64,000 nucleotides of DNA from an uncultured Actinomycetes bacterium (GTDB lineage: Bacteria; Actinomycetota; UBA4738; HRBIN12). The stretch spans positions 34,522 to 98,521 of the forward strand of contig CAWHGC010000017.1 of the NCBI GenBank assembly GCA_963828885.1. Reading direction: 5' to 3'. Positions 12,347 through 52,040 of the stretch are shown piece after piece. The position numbers were made by a program, and so were the translations under genes. Position 1 is the stretch's first letter. Each line of letters begins with the position of its first letter. Under the pieces are notes generated by a model. It made no database searches and was not told the DNA's origin. It was given only the letters and a program-made list of their open reading frames with translations.

Positions 12347-12352
12347 CGCGCG

Positions 12353-17080: not shown

Positions 17081-17085
17081 GCTCG

Positions 17086-20599: not shown

Positions 20600-20658
20600 A
20601 CGCGAACCCCCCCGTCACCGACCCCGAAGCCCATCATCCGAAGGAAGGATCCCGCGTC

Positions 20659-21030
20659 ATGCTGATCGGTCTCATCCTGATGTCGGTCGCGCTGGCGGCC
20701 ACCGCGCAGCTCACGCTGAAGCACGGCATGAACCAGGTCACCGAGGCGAGCGGGACGGCCACCCTGTCCGGCAGCTCCCTGCGGGCGGTCCTCACGAACC
20801 TCTCGGTGCTGTGCGGCCTCGCGATCTTCGGGCTGTCGGCGGTGGTCTGGCTCCTCGTGCTGTCGCGGGCGTCGCTCTCGTTCGCGTATCCGTTCGCCTC
20901 GCTCACGTACGTGCTGATCCTGCTGGCCGACCGGTTCGTGCTGCACGAGGAGATCCCGTTCCTGCGGTGGGTCGGCGTGGCCTTCATCGTGACCGGCATC
21001 ATCCTCGTCGCGCAGACCCCGCACCGGTGA
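20659..21030 (+). CDS. Small EamA/DMT-like 4-TM membrane protein (ArnE/ArnF-like glycolipid flippase-type subunit)
   Basis: MLIGLILMSVALAATAQLTLKHG... 124 aa with 4 TM segments and an AAGGAAGGA Shine-Dalgarno sequence. Confidence 0.6.
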   Translation: MLIGLILMSVALAATAQLTLKHGMNQVTEASGTATLSGSSLRAVLTNLSVLCGLAIFGLSAVVWLLVLSRASLSFAYPFASLTYVLILLADRFVLHEEIPFLRWVGVAFIVTGIILVAQTPHR

Positions 21031-21069
21031 GCCGGCCGAGAGCCGGCGGAGGCGGCCGACCTCGCCGTC

Positions 21070-22988: not shown

Positions 22989-24704
22989 ATGCGAAGAGCC
23001 GCACTCCTCGTCGCCGTCTCCCTCGTCGCTTCCCTGGGCGTCCTCCCGGCCGCGCCGGCCGGTGCCGCCGGGTCGTTCACCTTCTACGGCTCCGGCTTCG
23101 GGCACGGTCTCGGGATGTCGCAATGGGGGGCCTACGGCCTCGCGAAGGACGGCTGGGCGCACAAGAAGATCCTCACCCACTTCTACTCGGGCACCGTCGT
23201 GAAGCAGGCCTCCTCGCCGCCCAAGAACCTCCGGATCGGGCTCACGCAGGGACAGTCGAAGGTGCATCTCACCGCCGAGGCAGGACCCGTCACGATCCGC
23301 GTCGAGGATCCGAAGACCGGCACGGAGGTCGGCACGATCCCGAAGGGGAAGACCTGGACCGTGCGCGAGGCCGGCGACGAAGTACCGCGTGCTGAACTCG
23401 GCGGGCAAGCGCGTCGGCGGCAAGGACTGGGGCGGCACGGCACGGGACCTGTTCGTCACGTACGCCGGCGCCCGGGTGCGCTCGGCCGCTGCCGGCGCCA
23501 CCTACAACCGTGGCTTCATCGAGTTCAACCTGTACTCGTGCGCCGGGAGCTGCGCGATGCGCATGATCCTGGTGGTCGCGCCCGAGGCCTACCTCCTCGG
23601 GCTCGGGGAGGTGCCGAGCAGCTGGCCGATGGCCGCGCTCCGCGCGCAGGCGGTGGCGGGCGCGGTCCTACGCCCTCAACAAGGTGGAGTCCGGGCAGCA
23701 CCGCGCCGGCTGCAACTGCGGCCTGTACGACTCGTCGCTGGACCAGGTCTACATCGGGTGGGCGAAGGAGGGCGGCTCCCAGGGCGACCGCTGGGTGCAC
23801 GCGGTGCACCAGACCGGCGGCCAGATCGTCGCGTTCTCCGGCGACGTGATCCCGGCCTTCTACACCTCCTCCGACGGCGGCCACACGGAGAACAACGAGA
23901 ACGTCTGGGGCGGAACGCCGCTGCCGTATCTCAGGGGCGTCTGCGATCCCGGCGACTACACCTCGGCGAACCCGAGCGCCGTGTGGAAGGTCTCGTACTC
24001 GGCGGGGTCGGTGACGAACCGCCTCGCCGGCTACACCGGCAACATCGGCACCGTGTCGGGGTTCACCGACTTCGACCGCGGCGTGTCCGGGCGCATCATC
24101 ACGGTCCGCGTGGAGGGGAAGAACGGCTCGGACGTGATCAGCGGCGCGCAGTTCCGCGCGGGCCTCGGGCTCAAGGACGACCGCGTGTGGGTGAATCGCG
24201 ACAAGAACGTGACGGGGCGGATCCGCGCGACCTACGACGCCGCCTCGTGCGCGCCCGGCCTGCCCACCTCGCCCGAGGTCGACGTGCCGGGCGGCAGCCG
24301 CCAGCTCTTCGAGACCGGCGCGATCTACCGAAACACGGGCGACGTGACCGTGTGGCTGAAGGGCGCCGTCTTCGACGAGTACACGGCGGTGGGCGGCGCC
24401 GGCGGCCGACTCGGCCTGCCCACGTCGAAGGTGGTGCACGGTCACGGGCGTCACCGGATGCGCGGCGGGGTGCAGCCGGACCTCGTTCGTGCGCGGACGG
24501 ATCTACTGGAAGTCGGGCGTCGGCGCCAACGCCCTGTGGGGCCGCGTGCTGGACACGTTCCTCGCCCACAACGGCGTCGACGGGTCGCTGGGGTTCCCGA
24601 CCTCGCGCGTGCAGGTGGCGGACGACGGCAGCGCGTCGGCCACCTTCGAGCACGGCTCGATCGAGTGCCCGCCGCCCGACGGCGGGGACTGCACGATCAG
24701 CTGA
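22989..24704 (+). CDS. SpoIID/LytB-domain protein with C-terminal LGFP repeats, split by about 3 frame changes
   Basis: A signal peptide is followed by SFTFYGSGFGHGLGMSQWGAYGLA (SpoIID). A large central part lies in ORFs 23389.. and 23684... LGFP repeats (GGRLGLPTSKVV, GSLGFPTSRVQ) are at the end. Confidence 0.65.
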
Positions 24705-25521
24705 CGCTCAGCACTCGCCCGAGGACGTCGGCTCCGGCGCGTTGCTCGGTGCATTCGAAGGCCGTCATGAAGCCCTTCGCGATCGTGGTGGCCTGACTCG
24801 CCGTCACGGTGCCCGGGCAGGTGAGCAGTTTGTTCCACGCCGTCACGGCGAAGCCGACGCCCGTCGGCAGCGACGTGTGCGGCGTGAGGATCACGTGGTG
24901 CTTCGTGTCGTTGTTCGCGACCGTCGTGAGCGCGCTCGATCACGTCCGGTGGCAGCGCGCCGTCGCCGTCCGGCCGGTAGTAGATGTTCACGAACGCGTG
25001 CTCGAGGTTGTGCACGAGCCGCGTCTCGGGCGGCATCTCGGTGTACACGGCCGGGGTGGTCGGCAGTCGGGGACGGATCGTGCGGTCCCGACGTCGCCGG
25101 CTCCTCCGGATACACGTGCGTCGCGCCGGAGGCCAGGTGCATGCCGTCGGGCGCGCTGCCGACCGGCGTCTCCACGCCGGTGCAGCCGGCCGCCTTCGCC
25201 GCGTCGGCCGCGGCCGCCGGGAACGGATTCGGCGCCGCCCACGCGGGTGAACCAGGTGAAGACGCCGATCGCCACCGCCGCCACCACCACCGACAGCACG
25301 AACCGCCGTGCGGTGTCGCGCCGCCGCTGTCTGCGCATCGCGGCCTCGCGCGCGGCGCGCGCCTGCTGCTTGCGCTCCTGCCGGTCGGCGCGCGGCCGGT
25401 TCTGCTGGTGCGGGCGCCCGGCCGCGGTGCCCTGGCCGTCACCGCTCGCGGATCTGCCCGGACCTTGGCTCGCTGCGCCGCTCGGGCGGTGCGGACGACG
25501 GCGCCGCTTCTTGTTCGCCAT
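24697..25521 (-). CDS. DUF3105 family membrane-anchored protein, paralog 2, split by about 3 frame changes
   Basis: MANKKRRRRPHRPSG... basic N-terminus plus a TM segment (FVLSVVVAAVAIGVF). DUF3105 core HNLEHAFVNIYYRP. The start overlaps the stop of paralog 1 (TGATG). Confidence 0.55.
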
Positions 25522-26247
25522 CAGAGCACGGACCCGGCCTCGGGCGCCTCCCCGGCGTAGGTCTGGCCCGCCGCCGGCGGTGCGCTGTACTTCGACGTGA
25601 ACGCGAACGCGACCGGCAGGCTCACCGACGAGCAGGTCTGCATGCGGTGCCAGGCCACGAGCGCCATCTGCACGCCGTCGGGCAGCTGGCCGGCCGTTCC
25701 CTGGTCCGGGTAGCTGTACGGCGCGATGATCACGCGGTCCTGCCCGATGGCGGCCGCCGAGACCTTCCGGTCGTAGAAGGACTTCAGCTCGTCCAGCGCG
25801 GCGCCGCTCGTCGTCGGGTCGTACCAGATGATCGTGGCGCCGTGCTCGAGGCTGTGGATCGCCCGGTAGATGTCGGGCGGCGAGGAGTAGACGCCGGCCG
25901 GCAGGGGGCCGGGTCCATCGGGCGGCAACGCAGCATGCGGCCCGGAGGTCGGCGGCACGGACGGGTAGGTGGAGAGCTTCGGCGGGGTCGGGAACTGGGC
26001 GTGGTTCCGATGTGCGTCTGATCGACGTACTTCGAGTTCGTGACATCGGAGATGTCGTCGTAGGCCGGGATCGTCTGGACGTCGGTGCAGCCCGCGGTCT
26101 TCGCGGCCGCCGGCGCCTGTTTGAGCAGATCGGAGGCCTGCGCCTGGGTGGGCTCCTCGCCGGCGAACGGCTGCAGCACCACGAGGGCCACGATCAGGCC
26201 GGCGGCCACCACGAGCGCGATGCCGCCCAGGAGCCGGCCGCGGCGCT
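25521..26247 (-). CDS. DUF3105 family membrane-anchored protein, paralog 1, split by one frame change
   Basis: MAKQRRGRLLGGIALVVAAGLIVALVV ... then HSLEHGATIIWYDPTTSGAALDELKSFYDRK... in ORF 25521..26447. Confidence 0.6.
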
Positions 26248-26539
26248 GCTTGGCCATCTTCCGCTGGATCTCCTCGCGCTTGAGGCGGGCCTCCTCGCGC
26301 CGTTCCGCCTTCGTGATCCGGCGGTTCGGGTCCTCGCGTTCCGGCACGGATCGCTCCTGGGTCGTCGACGGGTGGGGCGCCTCGATGCGGTGCCCCGACG
26401 GCGACCAAGGATACGGGACGAGGGACCGGAAAGGTCGTTCGGGCCATTGCGGCCGAGGGGAGCGCTTCCTATCCTGTGCCTCGCCTTCCCCGATGGAACG
26501 GCGTGCCGGCGGCATCCCGCCGGCGAGGAGGGGGGGCGT

Positions 26540-27952
26540 ATGACGCAGACCGACAGCGATGTCGTGCGTGTGGACGGCGGCGGGGGCGGCCTCGACCGGT
26601 TCTTCAAGATCTCCGAGCGCGGATCGACCGTGCGAACGGAGGTCCGGGCCGGCGTCACCACGTGGCTGACGATGGCCTACATCCTGTTCCTGAATCCGTT
26701 CATCCTCGGGCTCGTCGCCGACCACAACGGCGTGACGCTGGATGCCGGACAGGTGCTCTCGGTCACGGCACTGGTGGCCGGTGTGGTGACGCTCGCGATG
26801 GGTCTCTACGCGAACTATCCGTTCGCGCTGGCGGCCGGGCTCGGACTCAACGGGTTCGTCGCCTTCACGCTCGTCGGCCAACTCGGCCTGTCCTGGCCCG
26901 AGGCCATGGGCGTGATCGTCCTCGAGGGCGTCATCATCACCGTGCTCGTGCTGACCAACGTGCGCGAGATGATCATGGACGCGATCCCCGTCGATCTGAA
27001 GCGCGCGATCGGCATCGGGATCGGCCTGTTCATCGCCCTGATCGGTCTGGTGAACGGCGGGGTGGTGGTGCTGGGCACCGACCCGGCACCGGTGCAGCTC
27101 AACGCCGATCTCTCCAGCCTCAGGATCCTCGTGTTCGTCGTGGGACTGGCGCTGGCCGCGATCCTGGTGACCCGCCGCGTCAAGGGAGGTCTGCTGATCG
27201 CGATCCTGGCGTCGACGGTGCTCGCCATCGTCATCAACCAGGGCTTCGGACATTCGGCGATCTGGGGTCCGGGCGTCGCCCATATCCCCGACACGTGGGT
27301 GAGCTCGCCGGACTTCAACCTGCTGGGGAACTTCTCGTTCGGGTTCACATCCGTGCTGGGTCTCGGGACGACGATCGCGGCCGTCCTCGCGGTCATGCTG
27401 TCGGACTTCTTCGACACGATGGGGACCGTGACGGGCCTCGGCGCCGAGGCGGGGTTCCTCGACGGCGAGAGCAAGCTCCCGGGGGTCAAGAAGGTCCTGC
27501 TGGTCGACTCCCTGGCCGCTGTCGCGGGCGGCGCCGCATCAGCCTCATCGAACACTACGTACATCGAGAGCGCGTCGGGGATCGCCGAAGGCGGGCGGAC
27601 CGGCCTCACGTCGGTGGTGGTCGGGGCGCTGTTCGTGGTGAGCCTGCTCTTCTCGTCGATCGCCGGCGTGATCCCGCCGGAGGCGACGGCGCCCATCCTG
27701 GTGGTCGTCGGCTTCTTCATGATGCAGGGCATCGGGGAGATCGACTGGCGAGACCCCGCCATCGGCATCCCTGCGTTCCTCACGATCGCGCTGATGCCGT
27801 TCACGTACTCGATCACGAACGGCGTGGGTGCGGGCATCCTGTCCTACGCGGTGATCCGGCTCGCGCAGGGACGGTGGCGCGACGTGCACATCTTCACGTT
27901 CATCGTGGCGGCGATCTTCGCTTGGTACTTCTTCCACGGACTGCTGGCCTAG
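26540..27952 (+). CDS. NCS2 family nucleobase permease (AzgA/PbuG-like guanine/hypoxanthine permease)
   Basis: Intact 470 aa, about 13 TM segments, NCS2 motifs (FFKISERGSTVRTE..., GLNGF). GAGGAGGGGGG lies 4 nt upstream of the ATG at 26540. Confidence 0.85.
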   Translation: MTQTDSDVVRVDGGGGGLDRFFKISERGSTVRTEVRAGVTTWLTMAYILFLNPFILGLVADHNGVTLDAGQVLSVTALVAGVVTLAMGLYANYPFALAAGLGLNGFVAFTLVGQLGLSWPEAMGVIVLEGVIITVLVLTNVREMIMDAIPVDLKRAIGIGIGLFIALIGLVNGGVVVLGTDPAPVQLNADLSSLRILVFVVGLALAAILVTRRVKGGLLIAILASTVLAIVINQGFGHSAIWGPGVAHIPDTWVSSPDFNLLGNFSFGFTSVLGLGTTIAAVLAVMLSDFFDTMGTVTGLGAEAGFLDGESKLPGVKKVLLVDSLAAVAGGAASASSNTTYIESASGIAEGGRTGLTSVVVGALFVVSLLFSSIAGVIPPEATAPILVVVGFFMMQGIGEIDWRDPAIGIPAFLTIALMPFTYSITNGVGAGILSYAVIRLAQGRWRDVHIFTFIVAAIFAWYFFHGLLA

Positions 27953-29103
27953 CGCCAGCGGAGGAATCGGTCGAGCTCGATCTGAGGGCGGGGCGCCGGC
28001 GCCCCGCCCTCGGCCGTCCACCCGGCCGAGATGACACCGACCGGCGTCCAGGCGCCGGCGAGGTCCAGCGCCTCGCGCACGGGCTCGGCGGACTCGACCG
28101 GCAGCAGGGCCCATGTGGACGCGAGGCCCTGGGCGTGCAGGCCGAGCAGCAGCGTCTGGATCGAGCGCCCCACGTCAAGCGGACGGGAGGAGTCCTCGGT
28201 CACGAACGGCAGGATCGCCGTCGGGGCGTCGGGTCGCACGCCGGGCACCGCGGCCAGCCGGCGGTGCGCGGCCGGCGTGTCGATGGCGACGAACAGCATC
28301 GGATCGGTCACCGACCCCAGCGCCGCTCGCACCGCCTCCTCGATCGCCGCGCGCGGCGCCGGGTCCGGACCGAACGCGAGGGCGTCGGCTCGCGACTGGA
28401 GCGCCTGGAGCGGCGATTCGCGGAACAGGTCGTCGAACGGGGAGCGCACCAGGTCCTGCGCGACCCCGTCCGGCGCGCCGCCGCGGTCGACGCCGCGGAC
28501 GATGGCCGCCGGCACCCGTGCGGCCTTCGTCATCACGAGCCCGCTCGCCGCCGCCACCTCGTCGGCGAGGCCGACGACGGTCGTGTCCATGATCCGGCCG
28601 TGATGGTCGGGCGCCCCGCGGAGGTCGAGCAGCGCGGGCAGGCCGGCACAGCCGATCGCCACGTTCACCACGCCCTCGCGCCACGGCCGGCCGAACGTGT
28701 CGGTGATGACGACCGCCAGATCCACGCCCAGGGCCGCCGAGAGGGCCTCGCGCAGCGCCGCCGCCGACGCGTCGGGATCCTCGGGCAGCAGGCTCAGCAC
28801 GCCCGCCTCCACGTTCGAGGCGTCCACGCCGGCGTTCGCACAGATCAGGCCGTGCCGGGTCTCCGCGATCAACAGATCGCCGCGGCGGGCGACGACCCGC
28901 ACCGTCTCCGCCGCCACGATCGCGTCCCGGTCGGCGGCGTCGGCGAGCCGGCCCTCGGCCTTCGACACGACCTTCTGCGTGACGGCGACGACGTCCCCGT
29001 CGCGAGCGCCGGCCGCGCGCAGCGGCGGCTCCAGGAGCGCCGCGAGGTCGTCCCCGGGCCGGATCTCCGGCACGCCGTCGAGGGGGATCAGCTCGATCGT
29101 CAC
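27949..29103 (-). CDS. fbiB: Coenzyme F420:L-glutamate ligase with a nitroreductase-like C-terminal domain (FbiB)
   Basis: Intact 384 aa. A CofE-like N-terminal half (GDDLAALL...GDVVAVTQKVVSKAEGR) and an NTR-like C-terminal half. The GTG start overlaps the fbiA stop (GTGA). Confidence 0.85.
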   Translation of the reverse strand: MTIELIPLDGVPEIRPGDDLAALLEPPLRAAGARDGDVVAVTQKVVSKAEGRLADAADRDAIVAAETVRVVARRGDLLIAETRHGLICANAGVDASNVEAGVLSLLPEDPDASAAALREALSAALGVDLAVVITDTFGRPWREGVVNVAIGCAGLPALLDLRGAPDHHGRIMDTTVVGLADEVAAASGLVMTKAARVPAAIVRGVDRGGAPDGVAQDLVRSPFDDLFRESPLQALQSRADALAFGPDPAPRAAIEEAVRAALGSVTDPMLFVAIDTPAAHRRLAAVPGVRPDAPTAILPFVTEDSSRPLDVGRSIQTLLLGLHAQGLASTWALLPVESAEPVREALDLAGAWTPVGVISAGWTAEGGAPAPRPQIELDRFLRWR

Positions 29104-32769: not shown

Positions 32770-32997
32770 GTGCACCACTACATCCCTTGGCAAGAGCGGG
32801 CGCGATGTCGCGAATACGACCCTGAGACGTTCTTCCCCGAGAAGGGAGGTTCATCGAGGGAGGCAAAGCGGATCTGCTCCGAGTGCCCCGTTCGGATCGA
32901 GTGCCTCAACTACGCGCTCCGCCGCGATGAGCGGTACGGGGTGTGGGGAGGCATGAGCGAACGGGAACGTCGACGCCTCAAGCGGATGGCGTCCTAG
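32770..32997 (+). CDS. whiB: WhiB-family transcriptional regulator (Fe-S, WhiB2/WhmD-like by context)
   Basis: Four Cys in the WhiB arrangement (ARCREYDPETFF...ICSECPVRIECLNYAL) and a GVWGG turn with a basic tail. GTG start with AGGGGGGAGA Shine-Dalgarno sequence. Confidence 0.9.
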   Translation: MHHYIPWQERARCREYDPETFFPEKGGSSREAKRICSECPVRIECLNYALRRDERYGVWGGMSERERRRLKRMAS

Positions 32998-33020: not shown

Positions 33021-33429
33021 ATGGCAGCTGCCAGGAAGACGGCAAGCGAAGAAGACCGCGGCGCGCAAGCGTCCGGCAGCCAAGAGGAGCACGGCCGCGA
33101 AGAAGACCGCAGCAACTCGGAAGCGCACCGCCGCCAAGCGGTCCACGGCCGGGAAGAAGGCGGCCGCGACCCGCAAGCGGAAGACCGTGAAGCGGTCCAC
33201 GGCCGGGAAGAAGGCGGCCGCGACCCGTAAGCGGAAGACGGCGGCGCGCAAGCGCCCGGCCGCCAAGAAGGCGACGGCTCGCAAGAAGACGGCCGCTCGT
33301 CGCAAGCCGGCACGCAAGAAGACGGCCGCGCGCAAGCGCCCGGCCGCCAAGAAGGCGACGGCACGCAAGAAGACCGCGGCGCGCAAGCGTCCGGCCGCTC
33401 GCAAGAAGAGCACGGCGAAGCGTCGCTGA
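33021..33429 (+). CDS. Lys/Ala-rich histone-H1/HU-tail-like basic repeat protein, with a frame discrepancy just after the start
   Basis: ATG 33021 has a strong SD (GGAGGG). From 33043 the +1 frame, which has GC3 near 90%, encodes AKKTAARKRPAAKRSTAAKK...(PAAKKATARKKTAAR)n...STAKRR, ending with TGA at 33427-33429. The frame-0 acidic peptide has poor GC3. Confidence 0.6.
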
Positions 33430-33535
33430 CCCTCGCCGTTTCCGATCGTGAAGGGGGGCGTCATGCCCCCCTTCCGTCGTTCTTCAGGAGGTGCGTGCTA
33501 GTCTCCGCGCCGCGCGGCTGACCCGTGCATCCCTC

Positions 33536-36500
33536 ATGGCTCAAGCCACCCCGACCGACCCCGCTCTCCGCACGCCGACCGTGCTCGCCGTGCTCGTGAC
33601 GCACGACGCCGCGGGCTGGATCCGCGAGTGCCTGCACGCCCTCGCCGCACAGACCTATCCACGGCTGGGTGTCCTGGCCGTCGACAACGCCTCCACCGAC
33701 GAGACGCGCCAGATCCTCGAGGCCTCGCTCGGATCGGGCCGGGTCCTCGCCCTCGACGAGAACCTCGGCGTCGCCGGCGCCGTGCAGGCGGCCCTCGCGT
33801 CGGTGCCGGCCGCCGCCGCCGCCGACTACCTCCTCATCACCCACGACGACACCGCGATGGACCCCGACTGCGTCACGCGGCTCGTCGAGGCGGCGATCGG
33901 CATCGAGGGCCTCGAGGACGTCGGCGTCGTCGGCCCCAAGGTCGTCGACTGGCACGAGCCCCGGCTCCTGCGCGAGGTCGGCCGTTCCACCGACCGCTTC
34001 GGGCATCCGTACACGCCGCTGCAGGACGGCGAGATCGACCAGGGCCAGTTCGATCGCGTCCTCGAGGTCATGTACGTGTCGTCGTGCGCGATGCTCGTCT
34101 CGCGCGAGTGCCTGCAGCGGACCGGCGTACCCGACGAGCGATTCACCTCCCACCACGAGGACCTCGACTTCTGCTGGCGCGCGCGGCTCGCCGGGTTCCG
34201 CGTGCTGATGACGCCGCTCGGACGCGCGCGCCACATGGCGGCGTCCTCGCGCGGCGAGCGTCCCGACGACCCGACCCCTCGGTCGGGGCGGTACTACGGC
34301 GAGCGCGCGGCGCTCGCGTCCATGTTGAAGAACTACGGACTGCTCTCGCTCCTCACGCTGCTGCCGCTGTACGCGCTGCTCGGCCTCGCGCGCCTCCTCG
34401 GGTTGGCGCTCGCGCGGCGGTTCGACGATGCGTGGGACCTGCTCACCGCGTGGGGGTGGAACGTGGCGCATCTGCCGGGCACGGTCCGGCGCCGCGTCCG
34501 CACGCAGTCCGTCCGGCGGGTGAAGGACCGGTCGATCCGCCGCTTCATGGAGTCCTCGGCGTTCCGGTTGCCGAAGTGGCTCGAGGCGGCCGGCGAGATC
34601 CTCGCCGAACAGCGCGGCATCGACGACGACGACGAGGGCGAGGTACCGCGTCCCAAGCTGAGCCGGCAGACCGTGTCGCTGGCCCGTGCCCACCCGGCCG
34701 CCGTCGCGTCGGTCCTCGCGATCGTCGTGTGCGGCATCGCGTTCCGCGACATGTTCGGCCCCGGCGCGATCCGCGGCGCCGTCGTCGCCGCGTTCCCGTC
34801 CGGCCCGTCGGCGTTGTTCGGCGAGTTCGCCTCGGGGTTCCGCACGACCGGACTCGGGGGCGCCGGCGCGGGCAGCCCCGCTCTGGCCGCGCTGGGCGGG
34901 CTCAGCACGCTGCTGCTCGGCAGCACCGAGCTCGCCCAGAAGGTGCTCCTGGGTGGGCTGCCGGTCGTGGCCGGCGTCACCATGTATCGGTCGTTGACGC
35001 GCCAGACGGGCGACGGCCTGGCCGCCGCGGTGGCGGCGGCCAGCTACGCCCTGTCGGGGATCGTGATGTGGGCCTTCTCCGACGGGCGGGTCGACGTCCT
35101 CGTGGCGCTCGCCGCGCTGCCGGCCCTCGCGGACCGGCTCGAGTCCGCCTTCGACGCGGAGGCGCCCGCGCAGCGCCGCCGGTTCGTCGTCGGCCTCGGG
35201 GTGGCGCTCGCCGTCGGCGTCTCCTTCTTCCCGGGGATCGCGCCGGCGTTCCTCGTCCTGGTCGCGGTCCGGGTCCTGGCGGCGCCGGCTCGCATGCGCG
35301 GCATCGGGCTCACGGCCGGCGGCGTCGTCGTCGGCGCGCTGCTCGTCCTGCCGTTCCTGCCCTCCCTCGCCGCCGCCGACGCCGCCGCCCTGGGCTCCAG
35401 CGTCGGCACCCTCGACGTCCACCGCATCGGCCGCCTCGGTCTCGGGCCGGGCCCGGGCACGGGTCCGATCGCCTGGTTCCTGCCGATCGCGGCGGTGTTC
35501 GCACTCAGCCTGGCGTCCGGCGAGGTGCGCGGCCGCGCGTTGCGGGCCACGCTGACGGCGGTGGCCGGCCTCGCGCTCGCGTGGCTGTCGGCGGCCGGGT
35601 ACCTGCCGGAGGCGCTGTCGAACCAGGTGGCGTACGTCTCGCTCGTCGCCGCCTCCGAGGCCCTGCTCGTCGGGTACGGCGTGGCGTCGCTCGCCGGCGG
35701 CGTCGGCAGCGAGTCGTTCGGATGGCGGCAGATCGGTGCGGCGGGACTCATCGCCGTCCTCGCGGCGGGGCTGTCCCTCCAGGCGATCCTCGCGATGGTC
35801 GGCGGATGGTCGTGGGGCGGCTCCGAGGCGATCCCGCCGGCGTGGGCGGTCATCGCCGATCGCACGGAGGGCGAGTTCCGCGTCCTGTGGATCGGCGACG
35901 ACGTCGGGATGGCGTTCCCGCCCCCGGGCGGGGACGCGCAGGGGATCGTCGACGCCGGGGCGGACTCGGTCCGCTTCAACGTCACGGACCGCAACGGCAT
36001 CACGATCCTCGACACCGGCCGCTCGTTGACGGGGCCGGGCACCGGCTACCTCCGAGCGGTCCTCCAGCGGATGCTCGCCGGCGGCACGCGACACGCGGGC
36101 GCTCTGCTCGGGCCGCTCGGCGTCCGGTACGTGGTCGCGCGCGAGGGCGACCTCCCGGCCGGCGCCCGGGCAGTGCTCGGCACGCAGCTCGACCTGGACC
36201 CGATCCCGAGCGAGGGCCTCGTCATCTACCGCAACGCGCACGCGCTGCCCCCCGCCGCGGTCTCCACGGACCCGGTCACGGCGCAGATCGCCGCGAGCTC
36301 CTCGCTCGACCAGATCCAGCGCCTCGCCGACCCCGGCGCCACCGCGGCCGCGCGCGTGCCGGGGGGGTGGGACGCCTCGGGTCCCGACGGCGCATCGGTG
36401 CTGATCGGCTCCGAGCGCGTGAGCGGGTTCCGCGCCCACGACGCGAGCGGATCGTCGGTGCCGGTCGCAACCTCGTTCGGGTGGGCGACCCGCACCGAGA

Positions 36501-36625
36501 TATCCGGCGGCGAGGTCCACGTCCGCGACGCGGATCAGTGGGTTCGAACCCTCTCCGTCTGGGTGCTCGCCCTGCTCTGGGCGGTCGCCCTGTGGATCAC
36601 GCGCAAGCCGGGGTCGTCGCGATGA
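33536..36625 (+). CDS. Large GT2-family glycosyltransferase fused to a polytopic membrane domain (about 1030 aa)
   Basis: Intact. N-terminal GT2 motifs (LAVLVTHDAAGW...AVDNASTDET...ITHDDTAMDPD...DLDFCWRARLAGFRV) are followed by more than 10 TM helices. An alternative GTG start lies at 33491. Confidence 0.8.
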   Translation: MAQATPTDPALRTPTVLAVLVTHDAAGWIRECLHALAAQTYPRLGVLAVDNASTDETRQILEASLGSGRVLALDENLGVAGAVQAALASVPAAAAADYLLITHDDTAMDPDCVTRLVEAAIGIEGLEDVGVVGPKVVDWHEPRLLREVGRSTDRFGHPYTPLQDGEIDQGQFDRVLEVMYVSSCAMLVSRECLQRTGVPDERFTSHHEDLDFCWRARLAGFRVLMTPLGRARHMAASSRGERPDDPTPRSGRYYGERAALASMLKNYGLLSLLTLLPLYALLGLARLLGLALARRFDDAWDLLTAWGWNVAHLPGTVRRRVRTQSVRRVKDRSIRRFMESSAFRLPKWLEAAGEILAEQRGIDDDDEGEVPRPKLSRQTVSLARAHPAAVASVLAIVVCGIAFRDMFGPGAIRGAVVAAFPSGPSALFGEFASGFRTTGLGGAGAGSPALAALGGLSTLLLGSTELAQKVLLGGLPVVAGVTMYRSLTRQTGDGLAAAVAAASYALSGIVMWAFSDGRVDVLVALAALPALADRLESAFDAEAPAQRRRFVVGLGVALAVGVSFFPGIAPAFLVLVAVRVLAAPARMRGIGLTAGGVVVGALLVLPFLPSLAAADAAALGSSVGTLDVHRIGRLGLGPGPGTGPIAWFLPIAAVFALSLASGEVRGRALRATLTAVAGLALAWLSAAGYLPEALSNQVAYVSLVAASEALLVGYGVASLAGGVGSESFGWRQIGAAGLIAVLAAGLSLQAILAMVGGWSWGGSEAIPPAWAVIADRTEGEFRVLWIGDDVGMAFPPPGGDAQGIVDAGADSVRFNVTDRNGITILDTGRSLTGPGTGYLRAVLQRMLAGGTRHAGALLGPLGVRYVVAREGDLPAGARAVLGTQLDLDPIPSEGLVIYRNAHALPPAAVSTDPVTAQIAASSSLDQIQRLADPGATAAARVPGGWDASGPDGASVLIGSERVSGFRAHDASGSSVPVATSFGWATRTEISGGEVHVRDADQWVRTLSVWVLALLWAVALWITRKPGSSR

Positions 36626-38001
36626 GGTCCCGGGGGCGCCTGGGCCTCGCGGTCCTCACGGTCGTCGCGGTCGTGGCGGCCGGCGTCGCCCTGGATCGTG
36701 CGGAGCCGGCGGCCAGGCCCGGGCCGGCCGACGTCGTCGCGACCAGCGGCGCGTGGTTCTGTCCCCACGGAGGCGGCCCCGAGTGGCAGACCGACCTGTA
36801 CGTGGCGAATCCCGGCACGACGGCGTCCGAGATCCGCGTCACGTCGCTCACGGCCAAGCGCAGCGGCGAGGCAGCGACCTTCACGGTCGATCCGGGCACC
36901 GAGATCCGGGTGCCGGCGGCCTCGACCGACCCGGCCTCGTCGTCGTTCGTGGAGTACTTCGGCGGATGGGTGGCCGCGGGGTGGGTCACGCACGCGGGTG
37001 GGTCCGCAACGGGCGTGGCGGCCGAGCCGTGCGCCCCCGAGGCCGGCACGCACTGGTTCGCGGCGGACGGAACCACCGAGCAGGGGCAGGACGCCGACCT
37101 CATCGTGATGAACCCGTTCGACGTCGACGCGGTGATCGACGTCGCGGTGCTCTCGCAGTCGCGCGCGCCGATCCGGAACTCGAATCTCACCGACCTGCGC
37201 ATCGCACCGCATCGCAGCGTGATGCTGCGGCTGAACACGGTCTCCGCCGACGAGCCGGCGGCGGCCGCCGAGGTCCTCGCGCGGACGGGACGCGTCGCCG
37301 TGTCCTCGCTCGGGATCTCCTCGGACGGAGGGATCCGCAGCGCGCTCGCCGTGCGGTCGCCGACCAGTGAGGTGCTCCTCGCCGGCACGCAGGACGTCGG
37401 CCAGTCCACGCTCGCCGTGATGGTGCCGGTCGAACAGGAGGTGCGCTTCGGCGCCGTGCTGCTCTCGGGGGAGCGGCCGGACGCGTCGGCGGGCATCACC
37501 GAGACCGCTCTCAGCGGACCCTCGGCACGCGCGTATCCCATCATCACCAAGGGACCCTCGCTCGTGGACGTCCGCGCTCAGGCCGGCGCGACGGTCGTCG
37601 TGGTCCGCCGCACCGAGGGGCAGAGCGGCGATCCCGGCGCCACGAGCGGCGCGGCCGAGCCCGCGGCGGCGTGGGTCGTGCTCCCGACCGTCGCCGGCGA
37701 GCCCAACACGCCGGGCATGGTGCTCGGCAACCCGGGCTCCGCACCCGTCGAGGTCTCGCTCTCCCTCCTCGGCGAGACGGGTGTGCTCGACCGTATCGCC
37801 GTCACCGTCCCGGCGACGTCGGCCATCGACGTACCTGCGGCCTTCCTCGAGCGGGATCCGACCGCGGCCGTCGTCGCCGTCAGCGCCGGCGCGCCCTTCG
37901 TCACCACCGGCGCGTCGTCCTCGCTCGGCCAGGAGGGGGTGGCCGACTACGCCGTGTCGGCGGGCGTGATGGTCCCCGCCGAGATGCATCTGCGACCCTG
38001 A
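36622..38001 (+). CDS. Secreted or membrane-anchored protein of unknown function, translationally coupled to the upstream GT2-membrane fusion
   Basis: Intact 459 aa, N-terminal signal/anchor MRSRGRLGLAVLTVVAVVAAGVAL, ATGA overlap with the upstream stop. Beta-rich, no recognisable catalytic motif. Confidence 0.6.
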   Translation: MRSRGRLGLAVLTVVAVVAAGVALDRAEPAARPGPADVVATSGAWFCPHGGGPEWQTDLYVANPGTTASEIRVTSLTAKRSGEAATFTVDPGTEIRVPAASTDPASSSFVEYFGGWVAAGWVTHAGGSATGVAAEPCAPEAGTHWFAADGTTEQGQDADLIVMNPFDVDAVIDVAVLSQSRAPIRNSNLTDLRIAPHRSVMLRLNTVSADEPAAAAEVLARTGRVAVSSLGISSDGGIRSALAVRSPTSEVLLAGTQDVGQSTLAVMVPVEQEVRFGAVLLSGERPDASAGITETALSGPSARAYPIITKGPSLVDVRAQAGATVVVVRRTEGQSGDPGATSGAAEPAAAWVVLPTVAGEPNTPGMVLGNPGSAPVEVSLSLLGETGVLDRIAVTVPATSAIDVPAAFLERDPTAAVVAVSAGAPFVTTGASSSLGQEGVADYAVSAGVMVPAEMHLRP

Positions 38002-38124
38002 GGCGAGGAACCGGCCAAGGAACCGGCGGAAGAGGGGGTGCTCCGTCGGAGAACCCGGGTATCATCTGCGAGCCGGGGCCGATGGTCCCGGCTCGACCTT
38101 CACCACCACGTTCGGAGCGTTCGG

Positions 38125-39189
38125 ATGCCACGAGGACGACACGCGAAGCGCATCGCCGGCGGACTGATCCCCGTCCTGGTGATCGTCCTCGCCGTGACCG
38201 TCGTCCTGGGCGGCGGCGCCACCTTCGCGGCGTACCGCTACGACCGCAGCGGCACGGACCGCATCCTGCCCGGCGTCACGATCGCCGGGGTCGACGTCGG
38301 CAAGATGACGCGGGACGAGGCCGTCGCCGCGGTCGGCGCCGCCACCTCCACGCGACTGGACGCGGAGCTGACGGTGGAGTCGGCCGGTCATTCGTGGTCG
38401 GCGACACCGGAACAGCTCGGTGTGCGCGCCGACGTCTCCGGGGCCGTGGACGAGGCCCTCGCGCTGTCGGGCTCGATGGGGATGTTCTCCCGCGTGTACC
38501 ACCGGCTCGCCGACGAGCCCGTGCATCGCTCGATCGACGTGGGCTGGCGCTACAGCGAGGGCAAGGTCAACGCGTTCGTGAAGGGCATCGCCCAGGACGT
38601 GGCGCAGGCCCCGCACGACGCCACCGTGTCGCTGCAGGGCTCCGAGGTCGTGTTCACCCACGCGAAGCCGGGCCGCGCGCTCAAGACCGAGCAGGCCTCG
38701 GCGAAGATCCTCACGGCGTTGCAGCACGGCTCGAGCGCGCCGGTGCAGCTCGGCGTGAAGGCGGTGGCGCCGAAGGTCACCGACGCCAAGGTCGGCACGA
38801 CCATCGTGATCGACAAGACGCTGAACAAGCTCTACCTCTATCAGGGCTTCAAGCTCGACCGCACCTACTCGGTCGCGACGGCGATGGCGCCGTACGAGAC
38901 ACCCAGCGGCACCTGGACGATCGTGAACAAGGCGATGAACCCCACCTGGACGAATCCGGCCCCCGACACCTGGGGCGCCGGGCTCCCGCTCACGATCCCG
39001 CCGGGTCCCGGCAACCCGCTGGGCACGCGGGCCCTCTACCTGAACGCCCCGGGGATCCGCATCCACGGCACGTATGACTCGGCGTCGATCGGCACGCACG
39101 CCTCGCACGGCTGCGTCCGCATGAACATCGACGACGTCGAGGAGATGTACCCCCTCGTCCCGATCGGTGCCACCGTCCTCATCTTCTGA
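38125..39189 (+). CDS. L,D-transpeptidase (YkuD domain) with an N-terminal TM anchor
   Basis: Catalytic motif HGTYDSASIGTHASHGCVRM. The start at MPRGRHAKR is followed by a TM segment. Confidence 0.8.
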   Translation: MPRGRHAKRIAGGLIPVLVIVLAVTVVLGGGATFAAYRYDRSGTDRILPGVTIAGVDVGKMTRDEAVAAVGAATSTRLDAELTVESAGHSWSATPEQLGVRADVSGAVDEALALSGSMGMFSRVYHRLADEPVHRSIDVGWRYSEGKVNAFVKGIAQDVAQAPHDATVSLQGSEVVFTHAKPGRALKTEQASAKILTALQHGSSAPVQLGVKAVAPKVTDAKVGTTIVIDKTLNKLYLYQGFKLDRTYSVATAMAPYETPSGTWTIVNKAMNPTWTNPAPDTWGAGLPLTIPPGPGNPLGTRALYLNAPGIRIHGTYDSASIGTHASHGCVRMNIDDVEEMYPLVPIGATVLIF

Positions 39190-40027: not shown

Positions 40028-41382
40028 GTGTCACCGGACCTGGACCGCATCTTCAAGGCGTACGACGTCCGTGGCGTCGTGCCCGACGAGCTCGATGTCG
40101 ACACCGCCCGCCGGATCGGCGGCGCCTTCGCGTCGTGGACCGGCGCCCCGCGGATCCTGATCGGACGGGACTGCCGGCTCTCGTCGCCCGACCTCGCGGC
40201 CGCGCTCGCCGAGGGCGCGACCGCCGTCGGCGCGGACGTGACCGACATCGGTCTGGCCTCCACCGATCTGCTGTACTTCGCGTCCGGTTCGCTCGACCTC
40301 CCCGGCATCATGCTGACGGCCAGCCACAACCCGCCGAACTACAACGGCATGAAGTTCTGCCTCGCCGGCGCGAGGCCCGTCGGGCAGGACACGGGGCTCG
40401 CCGACCTCCGCGAGCTGGCGGCCGGCCCCGAGCCGGCTCGTGCCGACGACGGTCGGCTCGGTCGAGCACCGGGACCTCCTCGACGACTACGTCGAGCACG
40501 TGCTGACGTTCGTCGACGTGGACGCGATGCGTCCGCTCACCGTCGTCATCGACACCGCGAACGGCATGGGCGGGCTCGTGGCGCCCGCCGTCCTCGCCCG
40601 CCTGCCCGTGAAGCTGCACCACCTGTTCCCCGAGCTCGACGGCACGTTCCCGAACCACCCTGCCGATCCGATCGACCCCGAGAACCAGCGCGATCTGAAG
40701 GCGGCCGTCCTCGAGTTCGACGCCGACATCGGCCTCGCGTTCGACGGCGACGCCGACCGGGTCTTCCTGGTCGACGAGCGCGCCGAGGGCGTCTCCGGGT
40801 CGATCGTGACGGCGCTGGTCGCGAAGGCGCTGCTGAAGCGCAACCCGGGCGCGCCGGTCGTCTACAACCTGATCTGCTCGTGGACGGTGCCGGAGGTGAT
40901 CCGCGAGGAGGGCGGGCAGCCGGTCCGGACCCGCGTCGGCCACTCGTTCATCAAGCAGGTCATGGCGGAGACCGGCGCCGTGTTCGGCGGCGAGCACTCG
41001 GGCCACTACTACTTCCGCGACAACTACTTCGCCGACTCGGGACTGATCGCGGCCGTCGTCGCGCTCGGCGAGCTGTCGTCGGCCGGCGTGCCGCTGTCCG
41101 AGCTGCTGGCCCCGTTCCGGCGGTACGCGGACTCGGGCGAGATCAACTCCGTCGTCGAGGACCCGGCGGGCCGGATCGAGGCGATCGCCGCTCGATACGC
41201 GGACGGCACGACAGGACCGCACGGACGGGCTGACGGTAGAGTTCCCGGACTGGTGGGCCAACGTGCGGGCGTCGAACACCGAGCCACTGCTCCGGCTGAA
41301 CGTGGAGGCCCGGACGCAGGAGCTGTTGGACGAGCGGACCGCCGAGTTGCTCACACTGATCCGCGGCGAAGGAGGCACCTGA
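40028..41382 (+). CDS. pmm: Phosphomannomutase/phosphoglucomutase, split by two frame changes near 40440 and 41215
   Basis: KAYDVRGVVPDELD..., active-site TASHNPPNYNGMKF, then GGEHSGHYYFRDNYFADSG, then the C-terminus ...WWANVRASNTEPLLRLNVEA in a third frame. Confidence 0.75.
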
Positions 41383-41557
41383 TGACGATCGACGCCGAGC
41401 TGCTGGAGATCCTGGTGTGCCCGAACGACCGGGGGGAGGTGGAGTACCTCGAGGCCGAGCAGGTCATCGTGTGCTCCACGTGCGGCTACCGCTATCCGGT
41501 GCGCGACGGTATCCCCGTCATGCTGATCGACGAGGCAGAGAAGCCGGGCGCGGCGAA

Positions 41558-41561
<4 letters not shown>
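41382..41561 (+). CDS. Trm112-family small zinc-ribbon protein
   Basis: LEILVCPNDRGEVEY...VIVCSTCGYRYPVRDGIPVML. Its ATG overlaps the pmm stop. Confidence 0.7.
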
Positions 41562-44742
<3,181 letters not shown>

Positions 44743-44743
44743 T

Positions 44744-45389
44744 GGAGGGGTCGGCGCTCGTCGCGATCCGCGCGCACTTCGAGAAGTTCCCCGCCACCGT
44801 GAAGGGGGCGTTCGTCCTGCGCAGCGCCGATCGCGATCCGCACCAGGTGGTGCTGCGGAGCGCCCGAGTGACGGAGCTGGCCGGGGCCGGCTCGCAGCCG
44901 ATCGACCTCCAGGAGACCACCCTCGACGTGGCGCCGAAGCTCGACTTCTTCGTGCCGTTCGAGTTCCCCGTCACGGAGCTCGCCGCCGGGTGGTACTGCC
45001 TCGAGACCGAGTGCGACGTCGACGGCGTCGCCACGGTCGTGCGTCCCGAGCGACGGTTCGCCATGGCGTGGCCGCGCGCGACCGTGCGGCGGGGGTCGGT
45101 GCCGGTGGGGGAGAAGATGGAGCTCGAGGGCGGTTCCACGGTGCTCGTCGACCACCTGGACTGCACGGGCGACTCCATGACGGTGCACTTCGCCGCCGAT
45201 CCGCCCGAGCCGGTCGAGTGGAAGCTGCGCGCCGACGGCGACCGGCTCGTCGTCCTCGACGCGCAGCTCGACGAGACGACCGGCAAGGGCCGCACGACGG
45301 CGTACCCGCTGATGAAGACGCAGCGCGCGCTGACGATCGAGCTCGCGCAGCACCGCGCGAAGGCCGTCGTCGAGGTCGTCCTGCCGTAG
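44744..45389 (+). CDS. Conserved hypothetical protein (beta-rich, 215 aa)
   Basis: Intact ORF with normal composition. GTG start 1 nt after the ahcY stop. Confidence 0.45.
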
Positions 45390-45433
45390 CGAGCGGCGTC
45401 TCCGGTGTCGGTGGCGGGCGCTACGGTGCGGCC

Positions 45434-46171
45434 GTGTGGTCGGAGGCCCTCGAGGTCGTCTTCCCCCGTTCGTGCGCCGGGTGCGGCACCGGCCCGTGGC
45501 CGTTCTGCGGGGCGTGCACGGCCTCGCTGGTGGCGCTGGAGCCGCCCTGGTGCGAGCGGTGCGGCCGCCCCTCCGATCGCCCGGTGGCGTCCTGCCGCGA
45601 CTGCCCGCCGGGATCCATCGACGTCGCGCGCGCAGCGTTCCTGTTCCACGGTCCGGCGCGCCGCGCGATCCACCGGCTGAAGTTCTCGGGCTGGCGGTCC
45701 GTGGCCGATGCGCTGGCGGCCGCCGTCGTCGCCACCGGTCCGCCGTCCGCCGACGTCGTCACGTGGGTGCCGCTCGCGCGGTCGCGGCTGGCCTCGCGCG
45801 GGTACGACCAGGCGAAGGTGCTGGCGCGGGCGCTCGCCGCCCGGACGGGCACGCCGGCGATCGCGCTGCTCGCGCGGGCCGCCGACACAGGACCGCAGGC
45901 GCGTCGCTCAGGCGCCGAGCGGCGGCTCGCCCTCGAGGGCGCCTTCCGGGCGTCGGGTCGGCCCGTGCCGGCGAGCGTGCTGCTCGTCGACGACGTCCTC
46001 ACGACGGGCGCCACCGCCGGCGTCTGCGCCCGCATCCTGCGTGAGGCCGGTGCCCGCCGGGTGTCGCTCGCCACCGCGGCACGCGCGTTCTCGGGCCCGC
46101 TGCCCCCTCGCTATACTCGCCCGCAGGGCCCTCGCCTGGGTCTGTGGTTGCCCGAGGACGTCCCTCGGTAG
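45434..46171 (+). CDS. ComF-family phosphoribosyltransferase (double zinc ribbon plus PRTase domain)
   Basis: CAGCG...CGACT...CERCG...CRDC zinc ribbons, and the PRTase motif VLLVDDVLTTGATAG. Same position as Rv3242c upstream of hpf. Confidence 0.75.
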   Translation: MWSEALEVVFPRSCAGCGTGPWPFCGACTASLVALEPPWCERCGRPSDRPVASCRDCPPGSIDVARAAFLFHGPARRAIHRLKFSGWRSVADALAAAVVATGPPSADVVTWVPLARSRLASRGYDQAKVLARALAARTGTPAIALLARAADTGPQARRSGAERRLALEGAFRASGRPVPASVLLVDDVLTTGATAGVCARILREAGARRVSLATAARAFSGPLPPRYTRPQGPRLGLWLPEDVPR

Positions 46172-46421
46172 TCGACGCCAGTCGCAGGCGAAACGACCCA
46201 CGTAAGGCGGCAGTTGGCCGCTGAGCATGGTGCGGTTTAGAGGTAAGTCCTGCCTCGGGCCTCCGGGTCCGGGAGAGGGCGGGAGTCGTCCCCCTCGGGG
46301 ATCGCGGCGAACGCCCCCGCAGGCGGGTGTGGGGTCAAAGACCAGGTCAGCCAGGCGAGGGCCCACCTTCGGCGAGGGGACCGATCAGGGAGCGACCGAC
46401 ACGACGGCGAGGAGCCCGCAC

Positions 46422-46760
46422 ATGGAGTTCACCTTCAAGGGCCGTGGCCTGCGCATCACCGACGAGGTCCGGGAGGTGGCTCGACACAAGCTCTCGCGCC
46501 TGGCCCGCATGGAGCCGCGTGCCACCCTCCTCGAGGTCGAGGTCATCGCCCAGCGCAACCCGCGCCTGGATCCGTTCCGGGTCGACGGCGCGCTGATGCG
46601 CCCGCGCAAGACGTTCCGTGCCCACGGCGAGGGCCCCGACGTGCCCACGGCGGTCGATCAGCTGGCCGAACGGTTGGAGCGGCAGGTCCGTGACGACCAC
46701 AGCCGGCGCCGAACGCGGCCTCCGGGCAGGGGGAATGGTCTAGAATCCGCTCACGCCTAG
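46422..46760 (+). CDS. hpf: Ribosome hibernation promoting factor (short HPF/RaiA)
   Basis: MEFTFKGRGLRITDEVREVARHKLSRLAR... S30AE fold. GAGGAG Shine-Dalgarno sequence. Confidence 0.8.
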   Translation: MEFTFKGRGLRITDEVREVARHKLSRLARMEPRATLLEVEVIAQRNPRLDPFRVDGALMRPRKTFRAHGEGPDVPTAVDQLAERLERQVRDDHSRRRTRPPGRGNGLESAHA

Positions 46761-49216: not shown

Positions 49217-49333
49217 GGCGGCGGCCAGGACCCGGCAGAACCCGGGCAGAACCGGAGCAGCCGATAGAATCGAAGGCTGAGGAGAGATCCGACCCGCCGG
49301 CACGCGGCCGGCCGATCCACGAGAGGAACCCCG

Positions 49334-52040
<2,707 letters not shown>

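Follow-up and report, generated by a model that had tools for sequence, protein, structure and literature searches.

A fused GT-A/GT-C-like glycosyltransferase and its coupled DUF5719 partner: a probable cell-wall sugar-decorating machine of uncultured Actinomycetota

What is made or modified by a glycosyltransferase family 2 (GT2) domain that is fused to a large membrane domain and followed by a coupled secreted protein? The question is raised by two adjacent open reading frames (ORFs), here ORF A and ORF B, in a 64,000-nucleotide stretch of an uncultured Actinomycetes bacterium (contig CAWHGC010000017.1, positions 34,522 to 98,521); this whole stretch is called the window, and all positions are counted within it unless a related locus is named. 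An earlier note on this DNA had read the pair as a processive enzyme that polymerises and translocates a glycan, with ORF B as its possible periplasmic partner. The observation on which it was based is confirmed, and its interpretation is partly supported: the pair probably serves uncultured Actinomycetota as a machine that decorates the cell wall with sugars, and not as a cellulose-synthase-type polymer exporter. Here it is proposed, as a reading somewhat more probable than its negation, that ORF A is a two-sided envelope glycosyltransferase, GT-A plus GT-C, that uses a lipid-linked donor outside the cell, with ORF B as its acceptor-binding partner. The parts of the two proteins that matter to the argument are the following.

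33536-36625, forward strand: ORF A, the GT2/GT-C-like fusion protein, 1029 aa from its ATG (from composition, homologues and the AlphaFold2, AF2, model).
33581-34243, forward strand: cytoplasmic GT-A (GT2) catalytic domain, residues 16-236 of ORF A (Pfam PF00535/PF13641).
34286-34624, forward strand: membrane-interface region, predicted on the cytoplasmic side, residues 251-363 (AF2 secondary structure).
34694-35800, forward strand: GT-C-like core of eleven transmembrane (TM) helices, residues 387-755 (hydropathy, AF2 helices, positive-inside rule, Foldseek).
34745-34924, forward strand: first outside loop, residues 404-463, a candidate GT-C active-site loop (AF2, conservation).
35801-36535, forward strand: extracytoplasmic mixed alpha/beta domain of 245 aa, residues 756-1000 (predicted local distance difference test, pLDDT, ~90 in AF2).
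36536-36598, forward strand: last TM helix, TM12, residues 1001-1021, followed by a short basic cytoplasmic tail (hydropathy, AF2, positive-inside rule).
36622-36625, forward strand: ATGA, in which the start codon of ORF B overlaps the stop codon TGA of ORF A (sequence).
36622-38001, forward strand: ORF B, the DUF5719 protein, 459 aa (Pfam PF18986, homologues, AF2).
36631-36699, forward strand: N-terminal TM anchor or uncleaved signal, residues 4-26 of ORF B (hydropathy, AF2 helix).
36745-37962, forward strand: four tandem beta-sandwich domains after a short linker, residues 42-447 of ORF B (AF2).

Long chance ORFs are common in the window because of its ~73% GC content. Two spurious ORFs, one of 1019 aa on the reverse strand (33461-36520) and one of 1457 aa on the forward strand (33628-38001), overlap ORF A and ORF B, so that ORF length alone is an unreliable guide in sequence of this composition. 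ORF A and ORF B are real genes and not chance ORFs. The frame of ORF A has GC contents of 0.94 at third (GC3) and 0.55 at second (GC2) codon positions, and its product has 1118 database homologues; ORF B has 596 homologues, most of which carry the same precomputed DUF5719 match. An in-frame GTG at 33491 would give ORF A 1044 aa; the ATG at 33536 is preferred because most listed full-length homologues have ~1020-1035 aa.

ORF A joins a cytoplasmic GT2 domain to a polytopic membrane domain and an extracytoplasmic C-terminal region, an architecture proposed in the earlier note and recovered here by Pfam, AF2 and topology. The note's count of at least 10 TM helices ahead of a periplasmic C-terminal region also holds, with 12 helices now counted, except that the last of them, which re-enters the membrane after the 245-aa domain, had been missed. 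In the topology predicted from hydropathy and AF2, the N-terminus is inside and 11 helices precede the outside domain; the positive-inside rule is satisfied in every loop, with the first loop and the 245-aa domain outside. The AF2 model, built from a 65-sequence alignment, has a pLDDT of 77.7, and the membrane and C-terminal parts are mostly at 85-95.

The GT2 domain matches both PF00535 (64 bits, cut-off 23.3) and PF13641 (62 bits, cut-off 27), with a best expect value (E) of 2e-17, and both families were also matched in 33/33 diverse family members; AF2 sets the boundaries of the GT-A domain at residues 16-233. Its motifs are HDD (residues 103-105) and HEDLD-x-CWR (207-215), in which two residues, D105 and R215, are invariant and two more, D104 and D211, nearly so among homologues 26-54% identical. 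A 45-residue insertion (residues 136-182; 33941-34081) is highly conserved, with a pLDDT of ~30 and with K135, G149, D153, E166, D168 and Q171 invariant even at 26% identity, and may act as a lid gated by substrate or as a loop that binds the acceptor. The interface region that follows consists of one hydrophobic helix (269-292) and Arg-rich amphipathic helices (296-363), and its residues W306, W308, N309, R320, Q324 and R327 are invariant in the close clade. The 19 Lys and Arg residues found within residues 293-386 indicate that this stretch is cytoplasmic.

In the GT2 domains of three diverse members, the best NCBIfam matches were MftF (66-80 bits, over the whole GT-A fold), EpsD, GlfT1 and a rhamnosyltransferase, with TuaG likewise among the family matches, and all scores were far under their cut-offs (280 bits in the case of MftF). 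Searched for in the same three members, the polyprenyl-phosphate sugar synthase subtype gave AglJ at E ~0.01, and the ArnC and GtrB models were unmatched.

These features bear directly on the processive reading, in which a synthase-type GT2 enzyme (BcsA, hyaluronan synthase [HAS] or PgaC-like) would thread its glycan through its own TM channel with ORF B as the periplasmic partner. Neither Q..RW nor [QR]..RW, the QxxRW motif, occurs anywhere in ORF A, and, by hydropathy and AF2, the GT domain is preceded by neither a hydrophobic segment nor a helix, every TM helix lying C-terminal to it; together with the family matches, these results argue against a BcsA/HAS/PgaC-type synthase. Partial matches to the PgaC and NodC models count in favour of such a synthase, although in the window protein most of their coverage lies in the N-terminal half of the GT domain, at 17-38 bits against cut-offs of 422-550, and the PgaC match is confined to that half in two of the three diverse members. 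MftF makes short beta-glucan chains, HAS is among the Foldseek matches of the ORF A model (E 1.9e-5, 477 columns), and the best GT2 structural match, PcManGT, has been called a minimal cellulose-synthase-like fold; the 12-TM domain is, however, closer to the GT-C enzyme AftD than to any synthase, and the outside domain appears YfhO-like, as described below. The synthase reading is largely refuted by this motif and fold evidence and is considered very improbable. The long Foldseek alignments to PcManGT, HAS and ArnC may reach into the interface region (251-363). The same GT2 features also speak against a simple CsbB/GtrB-type donor synthase.

For the membrane domain, the top Foldseek match of the ORF A model in the PDB was AftD (6w98_A; E 6.3e-8, prob 1.00, 610 columns), and two AftD mutant structures were also in the top six. 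All other entries of the top 50 were GT2 catalytic domains, namely PcManGT, heparosan and chondroitin synthases, SpsA, TarS, HAS and ArnC (E 1.5e-4 for the last), and no oligosaccharyltransferase was among these 50. Where the earlier note had weighed a synthase fold against a transporter fold, the membrane domain, as modelled, is like neither and resembles a GT-C enzyme instead. According to the AftD paper, GT-C enzymes are marked by a core of 11 TM helices in which TM1 and TM2 are separated by two juxtamembrane helices, TM3 is kinked by a proline and TM7 is followed by a long loop that includes a short helix; a soluble domain lies outside and, in AftD, the chain re-enters by the single TM12 (bioRxiv 10.1101/2019.12.22.885152). 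The predicted model of ORF A matches this layout: short helices at 424-432 and 448-459 lie between TM1 (387-403) and TM2 (464-491), and a long low-confidence loop with a short helix follows TM7 (residues 605-644). The TM3 proline (position 508) is present in 23/33 family members, and the window protein has Gly there.

The first outside loop, where a GT-C active site would be expected, is among the best-conserved stretches of the membrane domain (R404, E430, S433, R436, G441, P448), with the consensus R-x-L...F-P...F-x-E-x-x-S-G-W-R-x-x-G-L-G-G...P, and R404 is invariant in 33/33 diverse homologues. In the outside domain, W785, G855, Q884 and D886 are invariant among the homologues 26-54% identical. 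A sequence relative of this outside domain was found in another protein of the same window.

55980-58289, reverse strand: YfhO-like polytopic protein, 769 aa (Pfam YfhO at 28.5 bits, exactly at the threshold, over the C-terminal end only).

A profile of the YfhO-like family was made from 80 relatives of this protein in metagenomes (L086-L165). By hhalign, the region ~860-1021 of the ORF A family aligned with the C-terminal YfhO-like module over ~150 columns (P 1.2e-4, probability 55%), and reversed-template controls gave P 0.33-0.63. By these sequence profiles, the C-terminal module of the YfhO-like protein appears to be the closest, if distant, sequence relative of the outside domain of ORF A. 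The YfhO-like, PTPS_related and Dol-P-Man mannosyltransferase families belong to the Pfam GT-C clan; two distant members of the ORF A family have weak PTPS_related matches, and one has a Dol-P-Man mannosyltransferase match at noise level (E 0.35).

ORF B matches DUF5719 (PF18986) with 73.5 bits (cut-off 26.2) over residues 115-339, and its AF2 model has a pLDDT of 91.3. Hydropathy and AF2 bear out the earlier description of a beta-rich, N-terminally anchored and extracytoplasmic protein. Foldseek returned macroglobulin-like domain arrays at low TM-score and, for single domains, TM1070 and the Anabaena sensory-rhodopsin transducer (ASRT), with TM-scores of ~0.7 and a root-mean-square deviation of ~3 A; for the TM1070/ASRT fold, binding of sugars or small molecules has been proposed. 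Within the first beta-sandwich domain (36760-37032), Cys47 (in W-x-C) and Cys137 (in P-C) are invariant, including in Acidimicrobiia homologues 26-28% identical, and the simplest reading is a structural disulfide.

The translational coupling proposed for the pair is seen in the ATGA overlap, and the survey of the gene pair that the earlier note had suggested shows strict co-conservation. Related loci, 80 in number, were taken from a scan of species-representative genomes, almost all of them metagenome-assembled genomes (MAGs) labelled Actinomycetota. ORF B lies directly 3' of ORF A in 78/80, the remaining two loci ending before it, and in all 68 of the loci that meet a stricter requirement for downstream DNA. 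The 4-nt stop/start overlap is possible in 44 of ~78 related loci. When only loci whose flanking DNA extends far enough are counted for each gene, the order fbiC-whiB-A-B-ldt-DUF3499-pmm holds without exception (fbiC 50/50, whiB 62/62, B 68/68, the L,D-transpeptidase gene ldt 66/66, DUF3499 64/64, pmm 62/62).

The pair is also present in Acidimicrobiia at ~29% identity, where the overlapping DUF5719 gene is kept, with the 4-nt overlap annotated, and where the loci retain the cofD...DUF3499-pmm-Trm112 frame. The neighbours of the pair in these loci include nucleotide-sugar genes, further genes of the GT2 family and a PTPS_related membrane protein, and the L,D-transpeptidase gene is not downstream of ORF B. 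A thioredoxin-like gene is found after the DUF5719 gene (L082, 14648-15097).

18769-21330 in the Acidimicrobiia loci L084 and L085, and 18984-21572 in L082: membrane protein of 853-862 aa, just 5' of pmm.

The Pfam PTPS_related match was obtained for the L084 and L085 proteins, and the L082 protein has no Pfam match on record. With a PTPS_related protein in the locus, two GT-C-type proteins may work there.

The fusion itself is equally constant. A profile search with the membrane part alone against 1.84 billion cluster representatives found 1624 representatives (clusters at 50% identity), and every listed full-length one has 990-1110 aa with the membrane part starting at residue ~360-450, which means that each of them is fused to a GT2 domain. 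Unfused versions were sought among the shorter representatives, and the three that were looked up are contig-end truncations. The family spans at least two lineages of Actinomycetota, one of MAGs labelled uncultured Actinomycetes and the other Acidimicrobiia. Cluster names searched for cultured hosts gave MAG labels only (Actinomycetota, Acidimicrobiia and one 'Solirubrobacterales'), and no model organism with the pair.

Under the proposed function, the GT2 domain would be held at the cytoplasmic face by the hydrophobic helix and the Arg/Trp-rich amphipathic helices, and would use a nucleotide sugar for the glycosylation of a carrier or intermediate that is linked to polyprenyl phosphate. After a hand-over between the modules, the GT-C module would take the lipid-phosphate-linked sugar at the outer face and pass it to an envelope acceptor, as enzymes of YfhO, AftD, Emb and ArnT type do; a wall glycopolymer or lipoglycan is the likely acceptor. 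ORF B, made in fixed proportion through translational coupling and anchored in the membrane, would reach into the wall with its four beta-sandwich domains and would most likely be an acceptor-binding or positioning subunit, the role of the carbohydrate-binding modules (CBMs) built into AftD and EmbC. Such modules bind the acceptor in AftD, Emb and ORF12 (PMC11127046), and it has been speculated that extra proteins may bind the acceptor where the GT-C enzyme is small (PMC8035078). Of this picture, the architecture and topology of the domains, the predicted likeness in fold and the strict conservation of the fusion and of the gene pair are shown by the data; the lipid-linked donor, the hand-over, the part played by ORF B and the wall target are inferred.

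Pairs of GT-A and GT-C enzymes form multi-component transmembrane glycosylation systems, such as CsbB/GtcA/YfhO, GtlA/GtlB, the Csd pairs and GtrA/B/C, which likewise combine a cytoplasmic GT-A with an outward-facing polytopic GT-C, encoded by linked genes (PMC8035078). A wall polymer target is expected here too, and the C-terminal module of ORF A appears distantly related to a YfhO-like protein. In contrast to these systems, ORF A would hold both enzymes in one polypeptide, its GT2 domain is not of the GtrB/CsbB/Dpm1 subtype, no GtrA-type flippase gene adjoins it, and a dedicated DUF5719 partner is always coupled to it. The likeness to AftD (6W98), seen in the predicted model, comprises the 11 TM helices, the soluble outside domain, the re-entering TM12 and the two juxtamembrane helices between TM1 and TM2, whereas sequence similarity is undetectable. 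Three features of AftD, namely its three CBMs, TM13-16 and the ACP-binding region, are missing from ORF A, which has an outside domain of only 245 aa with one TM helix after it and carries a GT2 domain that is absent from AftD; by analogy, the beta-sandwich array of ORF B may do in trans the work that the CBMs do in cis. With PcManGT (6YV7), GlfT1, WbbL-type enzymes and MftF, the GT2 domain shares the GT-A fold, the DxD and ED-x-D-x-x-x-R motifs and amphipathic helices after the catalytic domain, and differs from them in the conserved 45-residue insertion and in the GT-C-like extension of 650 aa. An actinobacterial precedent for the fusion of a GT2 domain that charges a lipid carrier with a polytopic envelope enzyme is Ppm1 of Mycobacterium tuberculosis (Rv2051c), in which a polyprenyl-phosphate-mannose synthase is joined to a membrane enzyme; its partner domain is, however, an Lnt-like acyltransferase and not a GT-C enzyme, and the domain order is reversed relative to ORF A.

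Two sub-models describe how the two halves would cooperate. In one of them, the GT2 domain makes a polyprenyl-phosphate-linked monosaccharide that is flipped and then used by the protein's own GT-C module on a wall polymer, in effect a CsbB-YfhO pair fused in one chain. It is favoured by the logic of the fusion, with GT-A and GT-C partners typically lying side by side, csbB-yfhO and the Csd pairs among them (PMC8035078), with the fusion universal among the family members examined and with a C-terminal module that appears YfhO-like, and is disfavoured by a GT2 subtype unlike GtrB, Dpm1 or ArnC and by the lack of a flippase gene nearby; it is regarded as possible and is put forward tentatively. 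In the other, the GT2 domain extends a polyprenyl-pyrophosphate-linked glycan inside the cell, as WbbL, GlfT1 and PcManGT do, and after export the GT-C-like module transfers it en bloc, or adds residues, onto wall, lipid or protein acceptors. The GT2 subtype favours it, since the enzymes matched (GlfT1, the rhamnosyltransferase, EpsD, TuaG, MftF) act on lipid-pyrophosphate-linked or small acceptors and PcManGT is the best structural match, and the same window also holds an ABC-2 exporter, an LCP ligase and rhamnose genes. To our knowledge, however, oligosaccharyltransferases are the only GT-C enzymes that use pyrophosphate-linked oligosaccharides, and Pfam and PDB-sequence profile searches gave no STT3/PglB signal in ORF A, and the Foldseek top 50 contained no oligosaccharyltransferase; this sub-model is regarded as somewhat doubtful.

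Several results weigh against the two-sided reading as a whole. The GT-C assignment derives from a predicted structure and one Foldseek match with modest TM-scores (0.31, 0.25), and the membrane core has no Pfam or PDB sequence match. For residues 256-1029, Pfam gave no match, YfhO and PMT_2 included, with E allowed to reach 10; Pfam YfhO (PF09586) was matched in none of the 33 family members; and PDB-sequence profile searches with three alignments gave only GT2 domains or noise (Arf GTPases, E ~1). The hhalign comparison of the TM core alone with the YfhO-like family was not significant (P 0.069), nor was that with PTPS_related proteins (P 0.36), and a single-template hhalign with the Acidimicrobiia PTPS_related protein gave a short 'LGVRY...YR' match only (E 0.64). 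As a calibration, YfhO-like and PTPS_related proteins aligned with each other at P 0.13, and since both families belong to the GT-C clan, the negative result for the TM core is uninformative. By its family matches, the GT2 domain falls outside the GtrB/CsbB/Dpm1/ArnC type, by which GT-C enzymes are normally fed. No GtrA-type flippase gene was seen in the neighbourhoods with Pfam calls, which is weak evidence because such flippases are often unlinked (PMC8035078). In ORF B, the similarity is of a generic beta-sandwich kind, with no recognisable signature of a carbohydrate-binding family. Lastly, E430 is invariant in the close clade yet present in only 19/33 of the diverse set, others of which have Asp or Glu at nearby positions, so that no universally conserved catalytic acid is established in the first outside loop.

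This last point also speaks for an inactive membrane domain, that is, a scaffold, flippase or platform for polymer binding that derives from a GT-C enzyme and would serve only to anchor the GT2 domain and to recruit ORF B and wall enzymes such as the L,D-transpeptidase, and the invariant residues, mostly Arg, Gly, Pro and Trp, fit it as well. The strong conservation of the first outside loop and of the outside domain (W785, Q884, D886) over deep divergence is, on the other hand, typical of an active or binding site, and E430 does not vary throughout the close clade; an inactive domain is therefore considered quite unlikely. Both the synthase and the pure scaffold or transporter models are less likely than the two-sided ones.

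The surroundings of the two-sided enzyme and its partner in the window include the following features.

32770-32997, forward strand: whiB (tblastn with S. coelicolor WhiB, 65% identity, E 9e-33).
33021-33429, forward strand: Lys/Ala/Arg-rich repeat ORF (AAKK/TARKK-type, histone-H1-tail-like), between whiB and ORF A.
33450-33474, forward strand: GC-rich terminator-like hairpin with an 11-bp stem (8 GC pairs), ~60 nt 5' of the ORF A start.
38038-39189, forward strand: L,D-transpeptidase (PG_binding_4 and YkuD), directly 3' of ORF B.
9211-22918, forward strand: wall-polysaccharide gene cluster, 9-23 kb 5' of ORF A.
23567-24796, forward strand: LGFP-repeat protein, after the wall-polysaccharide cluster.

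A location between whiB and pmmA, as first described, is right and loose, with the Lys/Ala/Arg-rich ORF and the hairpin intervening on the 5' side and the L,D-transpeptidase and DUF3499-type genes on the 3' side. Downstream of ORF B, the order is L,D-transpeptidase, a DUF3499-type zinc-ribbon gene, pmm, Trm112 and a PGI-like gene. In M. leprae, ML0760 (whiB) and ML0761 have consecutive locus numbers (PMC4255298), which is consistent with the remark in the earlier note that M. tuberculosis has no counterpart of the pair at this junction. The wall-polysaccharide cluster contains an LCP ligase fragment, an NDP-sugar pyrophosphorylase, three GT4 genes, RmlB-like and RmlD-like genes, a phosphoesterase, an ABC-2 exporter permease and a GT2 gene. 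The genomic context of the pair is that of envelope glycopolymer and peptidoglycan biology.

The hairpin 5' of ORF A suggests a separate transcription start, or attenuation, for A-B(-ldt); it could terminate the whiB/Lys-Ala-rich transcript or regulate A-B, and its T-poor tail makes its function uncertain. A terminator-like site was sought between ORF B and the L,D-transpeptidase gene and none was found, and an Rfam scan of 32.4-40.2 kb of the window gave nothing credible. The ATG of the Lys/Ala/Arg-rich ORF (33021) is out of frame with the repeat body (33187-33429), which points to an indel. Its counterpart in locus L081 (9441-10004), annotated with 187 aa, also drifts into an alternative repeat frame.

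That both ORFs are intact amid frame-broken neighbours had been remarked upon, and the breaks are real: there are two in pmm (40028-41561) and one in secA (49268-51960), which splits the gene, with others in the LCP gene (9211-10068) and the NDP-sugar transferase/GT2 gene (21074-22918). Pseudogenisation of the neighbourhood was considered as their cause and rejected, as the normally indispensable secA and pmm are among the genes hit, and assembly indels are the more likely explanation. The intact state of ORF A and ORF B consequently has little meaning and is no selective signal in itself. Most of the related long-contig assemblies carry MFD sample names, which we take to denote long-read metagenomes and which likewise speak for assembly indels. 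Several stretches of 3-4 kb in the window (about 3972-6948, 24796-29100 and 42623-46744) are without any long high-GC3 ORF, and together with the breaks they fit indels from long-read assembly better than decay of the genes.

The two proteins are already in databases as 'GT2 family glycosyltransferase' and 'hypothetical/DUF5719'. The literature searched held no paper that mentions DUF5719 or describes such a GT-A/GT-C fusion, and a search on SCO3030-3033 gave nothing relevant. What is new is best classed as a variant of the known multi-component transmembrane glycosylation systems, consisting of the fusion and its dedicated partner. A bolder version, rather unlikely as a whole, is that the single polypeptide loads a polyprenyl-phosphate carrier in the cytoplasm, moves it across the membrane with no separate flippase and uses it through a GT-C family not classified before, with the obligate DUF5719 protein as a new kind of acceptor-binding or length-determining partner; the two would build or decorate a novel core wall glycopolymer of uncultured and deep-branching Actinomycetota, encoded in the conserved whiB-pmm division/wall region.

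The glycosylation of wall polymers outside the cell normally takes separate GT-A, flippase and GT-C proteins, and a GT-A/GT-C fusion that is conserved as one chain and has DUF5719 as its obligate partner would be a natural 'Rosetta stone' that physically joins both catalytic steps. The family is found in the conserved whiB-pmm region beside peptidoglycan and wall-polysaccharide genes, its membrane module is outside all Pfam families, and a tempting mis-annotation of ORF A as cellulose- or hyaluronan-synthase-like is corrected. The pair would give DUF5719 its first functional context and may hint at an undescribed wall glycopolymer in lineages without cultured models.

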